Shown here in pieces: positions 4,861 through 18,226 of a stretch of 20,000 nucleotides of DNA. The notes under the pieces are model-generated. The model was given only the letters and a program-made list of their open reading frames with translations. It had not been told where the DNA came from and did not search any database. The stretch is taken from IMG/VR virus record IMGVR_UViG_2858553787_000001. One strand, written 5' to 3'. Source of the stretch: an uncultured virus (IMG/VR IMGVR_UViG_2858553787_000001). Lineage: Duplodnaviria > Heunggongvirae > Uroviricota > Caudoviricetes. Made by a program: the position numbers and the translations under genes. Positions within the stretch are counted from its first letter, which is position 1. Each line of letters starts with the position of its first letter.

Positions 4861-4921
4861 ACCTCCGAAAATCTATAGAGTAAGGGAGCGTTCCCCTCTA
4901 CCACGCCAGATTTTCGGAGGT
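4861..4921 (-). promoter_or_regulatory. Long hairpin covering the antirepressor Shine-Dalgarno
   Basis: Perfect 14-bp IR acctccgaaaatct (4861-4874) / agattttcggaggt (4908-4921) with inner tagag/ctcta and ggga/tccc pairs. The downstream arm contains the SD GGAGGT. Confidence 0.7.
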
Positions 4922-4932
4922 CTTTTATAACC
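4905..4932 (-). promoter_or_regulatory. Repeated bipartite motif, copy 1 (putative element-specific promoter)
   Basis: Minus strand GGTTATAAAA-GACCTCCG-AAAATCTGGC upstream of the antirepressor gene. Confidence 0.7.
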
Positions 4933-4975
4933 TGTTTCTCTTAAATTTTTTTCTTGTTCCTTTTTCTCTCGTCCC

Positions 4976-7843
4976 TTAATCCTTCATATAAAAATCCGAG
5001 GTAAAGCCATCTGCTCGCAAAACCAGCCCCGGTGTCCAAGGCGGGGTTCGTCCCATCTGCTCACAAATTGCTTCCAGGCTGACCCGTGGGTCTGCTTCGA
5101 TGATCAGCTCGTCATGCACATGCATCACAATGGAACAACAACGGAGTGTGCGCATGGCATAGCAGAGGATGTCCCGGCTGATTGCCTGGATCACGTTCTC
5201 GGTCAGCTTGCCGCCAAAGCTCTCCAGCCTCTCCCACTTCTTTGTACCGCCAACACCTTCATAGGTAATGGAAGTTCCGCCGAACTGGTTTTCTCCCAGT
5301 CTCGGTTTCACATATGCCAGCTTTCTGCCAGAGGGAAGATAAATAAAGAGAAAGCCAGACTGGTAAGTGAACCGCAGGCACTTCACCTGCTGTGGCTCTT
5401 TGGTCTTGATGACATGGATGGCCGCCCTCTCGATCTCACCCCAGAGTCGGACGATATTCGGATTTGCTGACCGCCAGGAATCCACCAGCGGTTTCAGTTC
5501 TTCCTCTTTCATGCCAAGCTCCAGCGCCCCCATCGCTTTCAATGCACCAACGGAGCCGCCATAGCCGCAGTTGTGGACGAGATGTCCCGATACGGTAAAA
5601 CGGTGATGTCGTCCGGCATTTCGTATATCATAAAGTCGAGCCGTGCGCTTATAATTCGCCAGTTCTTCCTTTTCTCGAATACCGCAGTCTGTGCATCCTG
5701 AATGATTTCGTCCCGGTTCATCCCACTGCTCAGTTTCCGGACAACAACATTCTGGCAGTACGGCCAATACTTCTGCTCGAATCTGCCGAGTACCGTTGTC
5801 CTTCGATTTGCAGAATTCTCCTGTCTTGTTACCAGACGAATATTCCCAGGGGCATAGTTGCCGTTGTTGTCTATCCGGTCCAGTTCCATCTCCCGTTTTA
5901 GATGTCCGTACTGCCTGATCAGATAGAGTCCGGCTTCTATCACACTGGGAAACTCGAACTTTATCCCTCTCGCACCGTAATTGGCATACCCTGCATCGTT
6001 TGGATTCTCGCATCTCTGCTTGGCTGCTGCCAGTCTCTTTTCCAGCCAGCTCGGAATGGGACGTTTCTGAGTACAGTTCTGGCACCCTTTCGATTTTCCA
6101 CTGGTCAGATTTGTCCTGAGCTGCCACTGTATCGCACCGCAACCCATGCACTGTGTCAGAACATAGCAGTGATTCTGCTTTTCGTTCCATCGCTTCTCCG
6201 GACTGATAATTTTTACCCAGCCGTAATGCTCTCCCACCATCTCCGGTTTGTACGAGATGCGCGCCGCAGGTGGCGGCGAATCCAAGCTGTACCGGCTCCG
6301 ATTTCCCTTCAACCCAGACGAAATGGTCTGGAGTTGCTGTGAGTCCTTCGTAGGTGATGACTTCCCTTTCTCCTCTGTATATGACACCATCATGGGACAC
6401 CCACTCCTCTCCGTCCCAGACTTTATCTTCCTGTTTTACTTTTTCTATAGGCACCAGACCTCTATCCGTCAGCACCAAACTGCCCTCTGCAATACAGCTT
6501 AACTCGGCCTGTTTTCCTTTTTGTCGCAGCTCACCATTCTCACCATGCTTTACGACCGGCACTCCGAACATACGGGAAGCCGTTGCACAGTAAATGTCGC
6601 CACCGGAAGCAAAGACCTCCATGCGCCATTCTTCCCCTGCGATCCAGGAAAGCACTCTGGCTTCGATGGCGGAAAAGTCTGCCACATAGAACCTCGCGCC
6701 CTCTCTGGGGATGAATGCGGTACGGATGAGCTGGGACAATGTGTCCGGCACATCCTCATACAGCATCTTTACTGCTTCCAGATTTCCCTGCCGTACCAGT
6801 GCCCTCGCCTCTGCCAGATCCGGCAGATGGTTCTGCGGAAGGTTTTGCATCTGAATGAGGCGGCCTGAAAACCTGCCGGTGCGGTTGGCTCCGTAAAACA
6901 TGAACATCCCTCTTGCCCGGCCGTCCGAGCAGGCAGCATTCTTCATGGCCTGATACTTTTTCACACTGCTCTTTGCAAGCTGCTGACGCAGGCGCAACAC
7001 TTCCCGAATCTCCTCCGGCACTTCTTCCATAAGAGCTTTGACCTGCTTCTTTCCAAGACTGTCCGTCTCCACCCCGTTATCAGCAAGCCACCCTGACAGC
7101 TGGGATACCGAGTTCGGATTTTCCAGTGCAGTCAGCTCCTGCATCTTTGTCTTCAGTTCTTCCTTGATCTCGGTGTCCATTGCAATGGCATTCTGTACCA
7201 GCACACCGTCAATCCTTACGCCCCGGTCGTTGATTTCCTGATCGATAGCGTATTCCTCCCATACGGAATCCGGCACAGGGAAACGCTCCAGCTTCTGCTG
7301 GATCTGCATCTCGACCTCAACATCCCGCACATTATACTTTTTGAAGACATCCCACTTATCCGGTGCATCGGACGGAAGATTTCTTGTCCGGCCGCCGTTG
7401 GTCTTGGTTGGCGCACAGGGTACGCAGAAATAACGGATCAGGTCTTTGCCTTCTCCCATCTTCTGCTTATCCAGCCCCAGCACAGCACCGACTCCGGCCA
7501 GTGACAACGGCAGACCCATATATGCCGACCAGACCATCGTACACTTCCATTCCTCTGGGTTCAGATATTCCCCGGTCGGATAGCCCAGATACCGGGACAG
7601 GCAGACACGCTCGAATGAGGCATTGTGTGCCAGCTTCGTTACGCTCTCATCCTCCAGCGCAGCCAGTATCTCCTTTGGCAGCTTCTCTCCGCAGGCCAGA
7701 TCCACGACCCTGACCTCACCGCCGTCACAGGAATAGCCAAACAGCAGGATCTCAAAATCCGGGGATTCTGTGTATTTATAGACACCGCACTTTGCAAGGT
7801 CGGCAGAGGAATACGTTTCTATATCAATGTGTAATTCCTTCAT
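4976..7843 (-). CDS. Phage family A DNA polymerase containing an intein (955-aa precursor, about 646 aa spliced)
   Basis: 3'-5' exonuclease LHIDIETYS and AHNASFER; YGANRTGRFSG; motif A ADFSAIEARV; motif B RQKGKQAELS^CGYGG split by an insertion; motif C IVMHVHDELI. SD AAGGAGGT. Confidence 0.96.
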   Translation of the reverse strand: MKELHIDIETYSSADLAKCGVYKYTESPDFEILLFGYSCDGGEVRVVDLACGEKLPKEILAALEDESVTKLAHNASFERVCLSRYLGYPTGEYLNPEEWKCTMVWSAYMGLPLSLAGVGAVLGLDKQKMGEGKDLIRYFCVPCAPTKTNGGRTRNLPSDAPDKWDVFKKYNVRDVEVEMQIQQKLERFPVPDSVWEEYAIDQEINDRGVRIDGVLVQNAIAMDTEIKEELKTKMQELTALENPNSVSQLSGWLADNGVETDSLGKKQVKALMEEVPEEIREVLRLRQQLAKSSVKKYQAMKNAACSDGRARGMFMFYGANRTGRFSGRLIQMQNLPQNHLPDLAEARALVRQGNLEAVKMLYEDVPDTLSQLIRTAFIPREGARFYVADFSAIEARVLSWIAGEEWRMEVFASGGDIYCATASRMFGVPVVKHGENGELRQKGKQAELSCIAEGSLVLTDRGLVPIEKVKQEDKVWDGEEWVSHDGVIYRGEREVITYEGLTATPDHFVWVEGKSEPVQLGFAATCGAHLVQTGDGGRALRLGKNYQSGEAMERKAESLLCSDTVHGLRCDTVAAQDKSDQWKIERVPELYSETSHSELAGKETGSSQAEMRESKRCRVCQLRCERDKVRVSQCDRSRTLSDQAVRTSKTGDGTGPDRQQRQLCPWEYSSGNKTGEFCKSKDNGTRQIRAEVLAVLPECCCPETEQWDEPGRNHSGCTDCGIREKEELANYKRTARLYDIRNAGRHHRFTVSGHLVHNCGYGGSVGALKAMGALELGMKEEELKPLVDSWRSANPNIVRLWGEIERAAIHVIKTKEPQQVKCLRFTYQSGFLFIYLPSGRKLAYVKPRLGENQFGGTSITYEGVGGTKKWERLESFGGKLTENVIQAISRDILCYAMRTLRCCSIVMHVHDELIIEADPRVSLEAICEQMGRTPPWTPGLVLRADGFTSDFYMKD
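5539..6393 (-). CDS. HNH-type (DRIDN variant) homing endonuclease-like protein encoded in the +1 frame inside the intein
   Basis: 284-aa ORF, same strand as polA, offset 1450 nt (+1 frame). Contains VGEHYGWVKII, CMGCG..SGKSKGCQNC, KQRCENPN..Y.NYGARGI and LDRIDNNGNYAPGNIRLVT..EN.ANRR, typical of phage HNH-like endonucleases. AGGAG lies 10 nt before ATG 6393; alternative starts are TTG 6285 and ATG 6240. Confidence 0.88.
   Translation of the reverse strand: MMVSYTEEKGKSSPTKDSQQLQTISSGLKGNRSRYSLDSPPPAARISYKPEMVGEHYGWVKIISPEKRWNEKQNHCYVLTQCMGCGAIQWQLRTNLTSGKSKGCQNCTQKRPIPSWLEKRLAAAKQRCENPNDAGYANYGARGIKFEFPSVIEAGLYLIRQYGHLKREMELDRIDNNGNYAPGNIRLVTRQENSANRRTTVLGRFEQKYWPYCQNVVVRKLSSGMNRDEIIQDAQTAVFEKRKNWRIISARLDFMIYEMPDDITVLPYRDISSTTAAMAAPLVH
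5570..6496 (-). mobile_element. Class 1 intein (309 aa, precursor residues 450-758) inserted in PolA motif B
   Basis: Block A CIAEGSLVLTDRG (Cys1 at 6496-6494), block B LTATPDH, block F LYDIRNAG..FTVSG, block G LVHN followed by Cys+1. Removing it restores KQAELSCGYGGSVGAL. Confidence 0.95.
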
Positions 7844-7853
7844 GGCTACCTCC

Positions 7854-7976
7854 TTACCCAGTCCGTCTGTGCATCATCCTGCCGATGCTCTTTCGCTGGT
7901 CTGTATACTGTTTTTTGGGTGTCTGCTTGATCTGCTTCTTTTTCTTCTGTTCCTTCTCCTGCTTCTTTTTATACAT
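7854..7976 (-). CDS. Small Lys-rich hypothetical protein (40 aa)
   Basis: MYKKKQEKEQKKKKQIKQTPKK..., preceded by an AGGAG SD. Its start overlaps the DUF932 stop and its stop abuts the polA SD. Confidence 0.5.
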   Translation of the reverse strand: MYKKKQEKEQKKKKQIKQTPKKQYTDQRKSIGRMMHRRTG

Positions 7977-15865: not shown

Positions 15866-18226
15866 ATGAAAAAGGTACGAGTACACATCACAAAAACAAC
15901 CGTCAATGCCCCGACCTACAGTAACGTGACCTTTGAACCGACATTGATCAATTTCTTTTATGGAAAAAACGGAACCGGAAAATCTACGCTTGCCCGTTCT
16001 TTCAAAGATGGGAACGCTGCACTGACATGGGATGGTCAGCCATTCCCGGAAGAACGTGTTCTTGTTTACAATGAGGATTTTATCCGCAAAAATGTTCAGA
16101 GTTATGGTAACATTCCAGGCGTCTTTACTATCTCAGAAGTCAATGCACAGAAGAAAAAAGAAGCTGACGAAAAGGCCATCGAGAAAAAGTCCGTAGATGA
16201 CACTATTGTCGCAAGGGGAAAAGAGGCGGTAGCAAAGCAAGGTGAATTGGATAAACTGCATGGAGATTATGTCGAAGCCATTTGGGAAGCCACCAAGGAA
16301 TTCCGGGATAAATTTCCTCTCGCATTAGCCTATCTGCGCGACAAAAAGAAATTTGCTGATAAGATTCAAAGCATGACTCCTAAAGCGGCTAAAACAGCTC
16401 CAGACATTCCATCTTTTGATGAAGAAGATATGAGCATGTCCGCAGGTGAAGATCATTCCGAAGCGGAGCCGATGATTGAAATTGCAGATATCGAGGCGCT
16501 TTATCAAACCATTCATAGTGAAAAGAAGCCAGACTATAGTGCCTATCATTTGCTGTCATCCACTTCTCTTCCTGCATCTGATCTTCTGTCCACACCGATT
16601 CTCAGCCGCAGCGATACGGAATTCGCACGATTCATACGTGCACTTGGCAACCTGGACTGGATTACTCAGGGACATACGAAGTATCACTCTTCTGAAGGGA
16701 AGTGTCCTTACTGTCAGCAAACTATTCCAGCCACTTTTGAGGATGACCTTGCTGCCTGCTATGATGCCGAATACAAAGCTGATCTGAAAAAACTGTCTTC
16801 GTTTGTTCAACAGTATAAAGACGCACTAAACAATGTATACAAAACAGCTCATGCAAACGAAGGGAACAATTTTCCTTCGCCATTGCAGGCTGATTACAAG
16901 GCTGCTTTCGAGCTGTTTATGGAGAAGGCACGTACCAATGTGACCCTGCTGGAGCAGAAATCAGACAGCCCGGCAGATGTGATAGTATTGGAAGATTTGT
17001 CTGACCTTCTTGTTGAGCTCGACCAAATTTCACGCAAGATCAACGAAGATATTAAAGCCAGAAATGCTGTTCTCGCTGATATTCCGACTCAAAAGAAAAA
17101 ATGTACTGATATGGCATGGTCTGCAATCGTTCAGCGGACTCAGGTACTTACAAATACCTTCCGACGCAACACAGATTCTGTGATTGAAGCCATGAATTAT
17201 ATCAAGGCTGAAAGCAGCAAATTGAATGCAAAATCCCAGGCTCTTAGCAAAGAGATCGCAAAATTGAACAGTGAAACTGTCAACACCACTAAAACGATGC
17301 AAGATATTAACCGTGCCATCGCCAGTGCCGGTTTTAAAGGGTTTGAGCTTCAGGAAAAACCTGGTGCCAAATATGTCTATCAGCTTGTACGAAATCAGAA
17401 CGGCAAAAAGGTCGTTGTTGATAAGGATCTTAGTGAAGGTGAACGGCATTTTATTGCTTTCCTGTACTTCTATCACATGGTAATGGGCAGTCAGTCCGAT
17501 GCTGGAAAAGTCGAGGATAAGATTGTTGTAATCGATGATCCTGTTTCCTCTATGGACAGTGGTTCTCTATTTGTGGTTGCTTCCCTAACTCGTGAAATGA
17601 TTGCTGTCTGCTATAATAATTATGCATTTCATGAAGAAGTTGTGGATGACCATATTCGACAGTTCTTCTGTATGACACACAACCCTTACTTCTTCCGGGA
17701 AATTTCTTATAACCGCTTGCCTGATTATGAATGTGTATCCTTCTTTGAGATAAAGAAAGACACAAAAAATCAGACCAGCATTATAGAATGCCAAGATGAA
17801 GACACCATAGCCGGCGGCGGTCTTATCAACCGTTCTCCAGTAAGAAATACTTACGATACCCTTTGGCATGAATACGCCACAACGAGTGACCCGGATACTC
17901 TCCTGATTGTCATCCGGCAGATTCTTGAATACTACTTCATCCAGATGGTTGGTTATCAAAATGGAAATCTGCGTTCAGACTTACTGGATAAAAATGAAAG
18001 GGAATTCGTAAGAATTTTAGATGATGGCAGCGAAGATCGATCTGACTATGTCGCTGCTGCCGCCATGATTGCCATGCTGAATGTTGGGGCTACTGGCTTT
18101 AATGATGGACTATACTATGACTCATCTGCCACCAGTGTTGAACAGTTGCGTTCTGTCTTTGAACGGATCTTTAAGGTCATGCATCAGGAACAGCACTTTA
18201 ATATGATGACACGAAAAGCCCGATAA
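15866..18226 (+). CDS. AAA_13 / RloC-like ABC ATPase with coiled coil and zinc hook
   Basis: Walker A YGKNGTGKST, VYNEDF, hook CPYCQQ, signature LSEGE, Walker B/D-loop VVIDDPVSSMD, H-loop MTHN, C-terminal IRQILEYYF. Confidence 0.9.
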   Translation: MKKVRVHITKTTVNAPTYSNVTFEPTLINFFYGKNGTGKSTLARSFKDGNAALTWDGQPFPEERVLVYNEDFIRKNVQSYGNIPGVFTISEVNAQKKKEADEKAIEKKSVDDTIVARGKEAVAKQGELDKLHGDYVEAIWEATKEFRDKFPLALAYLRDKKKFADKIQSMTPKAAKTAPDIPSFDEEDMSMSAGEDHSEAEPMIEIADIEALYQTIHSEKKPDYSAYHLLSSTSLPASDLLSTPILSRSDTEFARFIRALGNLDWITQGHTKYHSSEGKCPYCQQTIPATFEDDLAACYDAEYKADLKKLSSFVQQYKDALNNVYKTAHANEGNNFPSPLQADYKAAFELFMEKARTNVTLLEQKSDSPADVIVLEDLSDLLVELDQISRKINEDIKARNAVLADIPTQKKKCTDMAWSAIVQRTQVLTNTFRRNTDSVIEAMNYIKAESSKLNAKSQALSKEIAKLNSETVNTTKTMQDINRAIASAGFKGFELQEKPGAKYVYQLVRNQNGKKVVVDKDLSEGERHFIAFLYFYHMVMGSQSDAGKVEDKIVVIDDPVSSMDSGSLFVVASLTREMIAVCYNNYAFHEEVVDDHIRQFFCMTHNPYFFREISYNRLPDYECVSFFEIKKDTKNQTSIIECQDEDTIAGGGLINRSPVRNTYDTLWHEYATTSDPDTLLIVIRQILEYYFIQMVGYQNGNLRSDLLDKNEREFVRILDDGSEDRSDYVAAAAMIAMLNVGATGFNDGLYYDSSATSVEQLRSVFERIFKVMHQEQHFNMMTRKAR

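Follow-up and report, generated by a model that had tools for sequence, protein, structure and literature searches.

A prophage DNA polymerase gene with a predicted mini-intein and a putative PacI-like homing nuclease gene in an overlapping +1 frame

The stretch of DNA analysed here, called the window in the following, comprises 20,000 nt of IMGVR_UViG_2858553787_000001, the record of an uncultured Caudoviricetes virus, and all coordinates are positions in the window. It carries the replication module of a prophage which lies within a 5.87-Mb genome, with genes for an exonuclease, a Gp2.5-like single-stranded DNA-binding protein, a family A DNA polymerase (polA), an anti-repressor and a primase-helicase. 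The polA gene contains an intein, and a second open reading frame (ORF), which occurs only once in the genome, is nested in the same DNA (Table 1). An earlier reading from the letters alone (the original prediction) had described this arrangement as an intein with an HNH endonuclease encoded in an overlapping +1 frame; its coordinates, the 284-codon ORF and the motifs it quoted (two CxxC, RC.NP...Y..YG.RGI and DRIDNNGNY.PGN) were all found in the +1 translation. The translation of the intein starts with CIAEGS, contains TPDH, ends with VHN and is stop-free over its 309 residues, with CGYGG as the next residues. The flanking polymerase sequences (exteins) meet at RQKGKQAELS/CGYGG, which fits R-x3-K-x3-F/L-x3-Y-G, a pattern that we take to be motif B of family A polymerases, and thus the insertion presumably lies inside motif B. 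The distance from position 6496 to position 6393 is 103 nt (34x3+1) and, therefore, the nested ORF is in the +1 frame of polA. Both frames are open on the same strand over 855 nt, close to the ~850 nt that had been predicted. In the window the +1 ORF overruns the end of the intein by 31 nt into the C-extein (5539-5569), and in some relatives it also extends beyond the intein.

Table 1 Features of the polA locus and of the nested ORF, with window positions and the evidence for each
Feature	Position	Strand	Evidence
polA precursor ORF, 955 aa, family A DNA polymerase with intein	4976..7843	-	Pfam DNA_pol_A E 6e-20; phrog_17 DNA polymerase E 2.7e-140
N-extein, 449 aa, C-terminal end ...RQKGKQAELS	6497..7843	-	ORF translation and junction comparison
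Intein, polymerase frame, 309 codons (precursor residues 450-758), C1...HN then C+1	5570..6496	-	Invariant C1/T55/H58/H308/N309; Z 16.5 to 2imz_A
Predicted N-lobe of the Hint fold (intein codons 1-86) with blocks A and B and with TPDH at 55-58	6239..6496	-	pLDDT block means 86-93 for residues 1-80; structure match
Polymerase-frame linker, codons 87-278, no stops, otherwise unconstrained, predicted disordered	5663..6238	-	pLDDT <50; amino acid identity as in third frame; stop avoidance
Predicted Hint C-lobe, codons 279-309, blocks F and G, ...VHN	5570..5662	-	pLDDT block means 82-91; structure match
C-extein, 197 aa and stop, first residues CGYGG	4976..5569	-	ORF translation and junction comparison
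+1-frame ORF, 284 aa, nested nuclease-like gene	5539..6393	-	phrog_374 E 3.9e-23; wobble periodicity; pLDDT 87.4
AGGAG, Shine-Dalgarno-like, 10 nt 5' of the ATG at 6393	6404..6408	-	Sequence
Putative Cys4 zinc ribbon of the +1 product: C82, C85, C104, C107	6073..6150	-	Conservation in 81 sequences
Predicted beta-beta-alpha core of the +1 product, residues 170-196 (D172, R173, Y180, N184, N196)	5806..5886	-	Model strands 170-173 and 185-188, helix 190-195; conservation; PacI Z 6.2
Predicted C-terminal helical domain of the +1 product, residues 214-254, possibly a DNA-binding part	5632..5754	-	Model helices 214-222, 227-239 and 245-254, pLDDT >90

Relatives of the +1 ORF under polA were collected by tblastn and pattern scans of three collections (phages, viral contigs and genome contigs). 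They were found in Streptococcus and Gardnerella phages, on 19 viral contigs and on 30 genome contigs, the latter mostly from Oscillospiraceae, Lachnospiraceae, Anaerococcus, Peptoniphilus and Acidaminococcus. No match was obtained when polA was compared with the phage collection by megablast. In all 55 close loci (window included) the insertion site is the same, the frame one base upstream of the nuclease match is open for 345-1026 codons (the shortest end at contig ends) and no open stretch of the third frame exceeds 80 codons. The intein has exactly 309 codons and usable flanks in 47 of the 55, and these were reduced to 27 representatives with less than 97% nucleotide identity (median 67%), which align without gaps; eight loci with other lengths or incomplete sequences were dropped (L005, L019, L026, L027, L045, L046, L061 and L062). 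Within the intein, none of the 27 representatives has a stop in the polymerase frame, 24 are stop-free in the +1 frame over codons 48-305, and the third frame has 8-34 stops; the +1 ORF ends at intein codon 306 in 11/27. Homologues with +1 stops had been named in advance as evidence that would speak against a second gene, and the frame was found open in 24 and interrupted in the other three, at codon 244 (L006), codon 194 (L051) and codon 124 (L053), with the polymerase frame still open. By their sequences, these three appear to be decaying nuclease genes inside inteins that can still be translated. Two of the dropped loci, L005 (Streptococcus phage Javan422) and L062, have mini-inteins of 168 and 155 codons at the same site, which have lost the greater part of the nested ORF by an in-frame deletion and retain the splicing blocks and the open polymerase frame. 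Three loci (L046, L051 and L061) are on contigs of metagenome-assembled genomes whose labels are Synergistales, Alistipes (Bacteroidota) and Desulfovibrionaceae, groups distant from the Firmicutes that make up the majority; these copies could reflect a real host spread or a binning error. The strand opposite the doubly coded stretch contains a 146-aa ORF (5902-6342, plus strand), which was considered as a gene and rejected: it is not conserved, and because the longest antisense open stretch ranges from 45 to 171 codons across the 27 representatives it was taken as chance. All 30 bins of 4976-7843 are covered by contigs (not raw reads) that stem from four public DNA runs, each of a different study, and not one letter is inserted or deleted in them; therefore, a pair of compensating indels, the sequencing error that could have mimicked two open frames, is out as an explanation.

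Nucleotide diversity was calculated per codon position on the alignment of the 27 representatives. In the exteins and in intein codons 1-60 the maximum was at position 3 of the polymerase frame (0.42-0.62), in codons ~64-290 it was at position 1 (0.34-0.61), which is the wobble position of the +1 frame. The shift is sharp at intein codon 64, and the maximum is back at position 3 from approximately codon 304, after a transition at approximately codons 290-304; codons 64-95 and 286-303 are constrained at all three positions. The mean pairwise amino acid identity in the intein middle was 0.55-0.82 in the +1 frame, but only 0.25-0.46 in the polymerase frame, as compared to 0.26-0.46 in the non-coding third frame. 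Wobble periodicity and amino acid identity thus demonstrate purifying selection on the +1 frame in the middle of the intein and on the polymerase frame at its ends, which is the distribution of synonymous-site conservation that the original prediction had called for. When the synonymous codons of the +1 ORF were permuted over codons 96-285 (2000 shuffles per representative), a mean of 3.4-15.2 stops arose in the polymerase frame where none is observed and, therefore, this frame is kept open by selection. A stop-free polymerase frame was obtained in 0/2000 shuffles in 24 representatives, in 1/2000 in two and in 25/2000 in one. In the window, a wobble T precedes a codon starting with AA, AG or GA in 0/62 cases, as compared to 39/127 elsewhere. 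The absence of stops is the sole constraint on the polymerase frame of the 192-codon linker. The overlap of two frames is real, selected and widespread.

The polymerase-frame intein was modelled from 21 sequences. Scores for pLDDT (predicted local distance difference test) were high at both ends, as block means of 86-93 for residues 1-80 and 82-91 for residues 281-309, but below 50 for residues 87-278 (192 residues), which have no secondary structure in the model. The best structural match was the Mtu RecA intein (2imz_A; Z 16.5, root-mean-square deviation (rmsd) 1.9 Å, 113 aligned residues); 30 chains were matched at Z of at least 8, and the top 22 rows were all inteins, bacterial intein-like (BIL) domains or hedgehog Hint domains. 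C1, T55, H58, H308 and N309 are invariant in 21/21 sequences. C1, C+1, TxxH in block B, a terminal His-Asn and the Hint fold, i.e. the features of a class 1 intein, are all present. In the window intein, Pfam Hint_2 (E 0.11) and TIGR01445 (E 0.14) do not reach their cut-offs. According to the model, the polymerase frame encodes a mini-intein, made of codons 1-86 and 279-309 around a disordered linker. Two earlier claims are borne out here: the splicing blocks are intact, with C1, TPDH, HN and C+1 all read in a Hint fold at Z 16.5, and the middle of the polymerase frame, which had been called junk, is a disordered and unconserved linker. A form with the nuclease fused to the intein in frame was not found among eight longer representatives (376-834 aa; no Pfam Hint), the class of 'longer' homologues not having been searched.

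Some polA alleles lack the intein at this site. That of Streptococcus phage Javan639 encodes 650 aa and has the empty site KIAELA/CGYGG, and its exteins share ~80% DNA identity with those of the intein-bearing Javan255. A tblastn search with the N-extein matched 1742 phage records; the N-extein at 60-80% identity was found in 118 phage records and the nuclease at 60% or more in 8. The distribution of the intein is thus sporadic, whereas the tree tests described below gave mixed results. The nuclease also has more distant relatives (28-45% identity), which share its N-terminal region and are free-standing genes; around none of seven does another frame hold a long ORF, and 155 codons is the longest stretch open in any other frame. 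This supports the proposal, made already in the original prediction, that a free-standing gene invaded a mini-intein.

A sister clade is found in Salmonella phage LP31 (L003), Sodalis phage SO-1 (L004) and Escherichia phage AV129 (L008), which are of the Jersey and Dhillon types and have a homologous polA intein of 300 codons. Roughly 170 Salmonella and Escherichia phage records turned up in the phage search with the nuclease. The intein of the sister clade is inserted four codons further upstream (GKA/C...HN/CELGLGYGG) and contains a homologous nuclease ORF (34% identity, E 7e-23), which is in the +2 frame. Between LP31 and SO-1, the most variable position in the intein middle is position 2 of the polymerase frame, i.e. 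the +2-frame wobble. Differences at wobble sites amount to 0.3-0.4 in the intein and are lower than in the flanking exteins (0.6-0.7), which is a hint of recent transfer. In the SO-1 record (L004 921-4109, 2405-3163) the nested gp39 is annotated as HNH endonuclease of a 'type I self-splicing intron', and the polymerase coding sequence is one continuous frame; judged by its homology with the intein described here, the intron label looks like a mis-annotation.

The product of the +1 ORF was modelled from 81 aligned sequences with a mean pLDDT of 87.4; residues 41-260 are confident and both tails, with the last ~24 residues, are low. The model has a Cys4 ribbon, followed by helices, a strand-loop-strand-helix core (170-196) and three C-terminal helices; in relatives the product is 257-270 aa long. 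Among the 81 sequences, ribbon cysteine C82 is invariant and C85, C104 and C107 are at least 90% conserved, and in the core N184 is invariant and D172, Y180 and N196 are at least 90% conserved. Y180 is placed in the loop between the strands 170-173 and 185-188, and the position of the catalytic histidine is taken by an arginine (R173). In an all-against-all structural alignment, the top solved structure was the restriction enzyme PacI (3m7k_A; Z 6.2, rmsd 2.9 Å, 76 aligned residues, model residues 111-200), and a second structural comparison gave PacI again (3ldy_A, Z 6.0). Foldseek gave an E of 0.25 for PacI and no match at E <=1e-3 in the Protein Data Bank. Among predicted viral structures, 84 matched the model at E <=1e-3, and many of these carry the name HNH endonuclease or AP2. 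In PHROG, the +1 ORF matches families with the name HNH endonuclease at E down to 3.9e-23; NCBIfam has no family for it, and when the Protein Data Bank was searched by sequence, neither the ORF nor the 81-sequence profile gave anything meaningful (best E 0.23). The nuclease family is large, with 38,807 cluster representatives at E <=1e-3 and 72 at E <=1e-30. PacI and a mostly viral group 20 are described as lacking the histidine and using a loop tyrosine as nucleophile (Jablonska et al. 2017, PMC5714182). The +1 product likewise has no catalytic histidine and, in the model, a tyrosine in the loop between the strands. Because of the arginine at the histidine position, the conserved loop Y180 and the agreement with the description of PacI, we infer by analogy that the +1 ORF encodes a PacI-type nuclease, and this character is the most distinctive trait of the putative nested enzyme. 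Of the HNH nuclease that had been predicted, what stands is a confidently folded nuclease-like protein; it is not a canonical HNH enzyme, since its best match is the His-less PacI and neither a catalytic histidine nor a score above the cut-off of the family model was found. The search of both frames that had been suggested gave Hint for the polymerase frame, and for the +1 frame a sub-threshold HNH_3 match and PacI at Z 6.2.

We propose, with a probability of roughly 0.8, that polA carries a class 1 mini-intein together with a separately made, out-of-frame PacI-like homing nuclease which derives from the insertion of a free-standing gene. Ribosomes would read the polymerase frame straight through the intein, which would then excise itself and the linker by protein splicing. 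The nuclease would be translated separately, from an internal ATG with its own Shine-Dalgarno (SD)-like sequence, and would cut intein-less polA alleles near the insertion site, so that repair copies the intein and the nested gene in (homing). The most likely origin would be a free-standing nuclease gene inserted into a mini-intein. This mechanism of splice-out, separate translation and homing appears well supported by the anatomy as seen in sequence and models. Several observations weigh against the proposal. Nuclease expression, protein splicing and cleavage of the empty site are all deduced, and no RNA run was listed as containing the stretch. The arginine is at the position of the catalytic histidine in 81/81 sequences, and the Z of 6.0-6.2 for PacI is under the level of Z 8 which the aligner advises as safe. 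Pfam HNH_3 gave E 0.062 and 13.4 bits with the window ORF at a cut-off of 24.8, and reached E <0.01 in 1/81 family members only; since the catalytic histidine is absent and HNH_3 is below its cut-off, nuclease activity rests on the analogy to PacI. The evidence for horizontal movement is mixed. Five clades of the intein tree were compared with the extein data of 23 representatives (four with incomplete exteins were left out): two are present in the extein tree, one was not rejected (p 0.37) and two were rejected (p-AU 0.035 and 0.005; a long-branch row is part of the second of these). Intein and extein similarity are weakly correlated (Spearman 0.29, 1081 pairs), and recent transfer, sought as inteins of at least 90% nucleotide identity in exteins below 80% amino acid identity, was seen in 0/1081 pairs.

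Some of these points would also fit a +1 protein that is not a nuclease but a His-less DNA-binding or regulatory resident of an intein that no longer homes. The arginine in all 81 sequences, the HNH_3 score below the cut-off and the partial congruence of the intein and extein trees are compatible with such a resident, and some other His-less groups of His-Me finger proteins are described as having no nuclease activity (PMC5714182). However, according to the same source the best solved match, PacI, is enzymatically active and works through its loop tyrosine, Y180 is conserved in the inter-strand loop with D172, N184 and N196 conserved around it, and presence or absence at one exact site together with decayed and deleted copies fit a homing cycle. 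We therefore regard the non-nuclease as improbable, although it is the strongest of the alternatives.

The proposed homing nuclease would be made from its own start. In each of the 27 representatives an ATG follows the last upstream +1 stop and lies before codon 63. In 24/27 this ATG is intein codon 49; in the window, L010 and L036, which lack it, AGGAG stands 10 nt before an ATG at codon 35. An SD-like core is located 4-12 nt before these starts in 26/27 and has at least 5 nt in 13/27, with base rates over all positions of 19% for any SD-like core of at least 4 nt and 1.9% for a core of at least 5 nt. The 26 cases are not independent, because conserved polymerase-frame residues encode the core and the positions are homologous, which is a further point on the negative side of the balance; the count is only suggestive of a separate start. 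Another ATG, at ORF residue 52 (intein codon 86, nt 6240), is present in 24/27, and the other three have GTG at the next codon. It was discarded as the main start, because the +1 constraint already sets in 22 codons before it, a strand is modelled at residues 45-48 and an SD-like core is found in 0/24. A programmed +1 ribosomal frameshift, by which the +1 protein would be fused to the N-extein and the N-lobe of the intein, could account for a +1 constraint that begins at codon 64, within the translated intein, and for a conserved ATG at codon 86 that has no SD-like core. It is an unlikely explanation, since all 27 keep an ATG upstream of codon 64 in an open +1 frame, the three that lack the ATG at codon 49 have the alternative at codon 35 with its AGGAG, +1-frame stops (codons 46-47) lie just upstream of the ATG at codon 49 in most relatives, and the distant relatives are free-standing with the same N-terminal region.

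Even less probable is that the +1 ORF is the dead relic of an in-frame endonuclease shifted by two indels, which would leave a mini-intein with junk inside. The internal stops in L006, L051 and L053 and the deletion of the nested ORF in two relatives could be taken as signs of decay, but the ORF is open in 24/27 at a median nucleotide identity of 67%, wobble periodicity and an amino acid identity of 0.55-0.82 reveal purifying selection on the +1 frame, and the same pattern is found in the +2 frame of the second clade. An artefact of compensating sequencing errors is highly improbable in view of the indel-free contigs of four independent runs and the same frames in 55 loci, and so is a group I intron carrying the ORF, as the SO-1 record notes for gp38/gp39, since Rfam gave no intron family at E <=1 for 4900-7900 but only a chance snoRNA match and the polymerase frame is selected to be open, with ends that form a predicted Hint fold with C1, TxxH, HN and C+1. 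Outside the replication module, the window also contains an ORF of 786 aa (15866-18226, plus strand) which matches phrog_2801 (unknown function; E 3e-67) and, weakly, an SbcC-like family.

A mini-intein with an out-of-frame nuclease, as proposed here for polA, is a layout that has already been described, and the polA family is a further member; the original prediction had cautioned that its novelty might be limited, and two preprints of 2025-26 indeed report out-of-frame intein endonucleases. Full-text literature searches found no paper on this polA intein family. Gosselin, Arsenault and Gogarten (bioRxiv 10.1101/2025.01.02.630785) present actinobacteriophage inteins in which 'reading frame 3' encodes a homing endonuclease of the endonuclease VII-like type, and they propose that free-standing endonuclease genes invade inteins. 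Both systems have a nuclease ORF out of frame on the same strand, an unstructured middle in the intein frame, an origin by invasion and close intein-free alleles. They differ in that the polA inteins are found in Firmicute prophages instead of actinophages, the nuclease is PacI-like and His-less instead of endonuclease VII-like, and its frame is +1 instead of 'reading frame 3'; a polymerase named among the host proteins of that preprint is DNA polymerase III alpha, here it is a family A enzyme. A cyanobacterial dnaX intein has an out-of-frame LAGLIDADG endonuclease in a +2 ORF (Phillips, DeSimone and Gogarten, bioRxiv 10.64898/2026.09.14.751524), and the authors credit the first proposal of the out-of-frame layout to Gorbalenya 1998. 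Like the polA intein, it is described with purifying selection on the alternate ORF, an intein frame relaxed in the overlap, mini-inteins and intein-free alleles, and a secondary invasion is proposed; unlike it, it resides in a cellular gene and combines LAGLIDADG with the +2 frame, as compared to a His-Me finger in the +1 frame of a phage polA here. The 'hidden' out-of-frame HNH of ShiLan, found in DNA methylase genes of actinophages (Arsenault et al. 2025, PMC11855218), is likewise an HNH-type gene overprinted in a host gene with a stop-free frame of its own. In that report there is no intein and the insert stays in the host protein, whereas here the Hint fold is predicted to remove it; no detectable ribosome-binding site is reported for ShiLan, whereas an SD-like core precedes the likely start here. 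With PacI and group 20, as described (PMC5714182), the +1 product shares the absence of the catalytic histidine, a loop tyrosine, one or more flanking helical domains and a predominantly viral occurrence, and its predicted core may be of the same beta-beta-alpha-metal type. Unlike PacI, which is a restriction enzyme and not nested in an intein, it has a zinc ribbon preceding the core, and the match is limited to a Z of 6.0-6.2 without a match at the sequence level. Fractured genes, in which a free-standing gene for an endonuclease separates the halves of a split intein (Dassa et al. 2009, PMC2677866), resemble the polA locus in having such a gene at the endonuclease position of the intein; there, intein and host gene are split into two ORFs, but here one continuous ORF remains open.

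It is conceivable, though we advance this only tentatively, that out-of-frame nesting is a stable, selected design in which a homologous mini-intein and a PacI-type nuclease are combined in two offsets, +1 in prophages that come from Firmicutes and from other bacteria of the gut or vagina, and +2 in Jersey- and Dhillon-type enterobacterial phages, with motif B sites four codons apart and with codons 75-86 and 279-294 contributing to folded regions of the two proteins at once. In that case, the PacI-type enzymes would form a family of intein-associated homing endonucleases that has no name yet, and the dosage of the nuclease would be uncoupled from that of the polymerase by the overlap.

The polA inteins add a large, well-sampled family (~50 loci) to the few inteins known with a separate, overlapping endonuclease gene. 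Records of the sister clade in Salmonella and Escherichia phages already read 'intein-containing DNA polymerase precursor'. The nested gene is overlooked by standard annotation or taken for an intron, an example of the latter being the SO-1 record. The linker, stop-free and otherwise free, is a measure of how much unstructured insert a mini-intein tolerates. The family supports the view of intein origin in which the splicing domain came first and the endonuclease invaded later and, if the PacI-type reading is true, it would provide a homing enzyme with a tyrosine nucleophile and a defined natural target in polymerase motif B.

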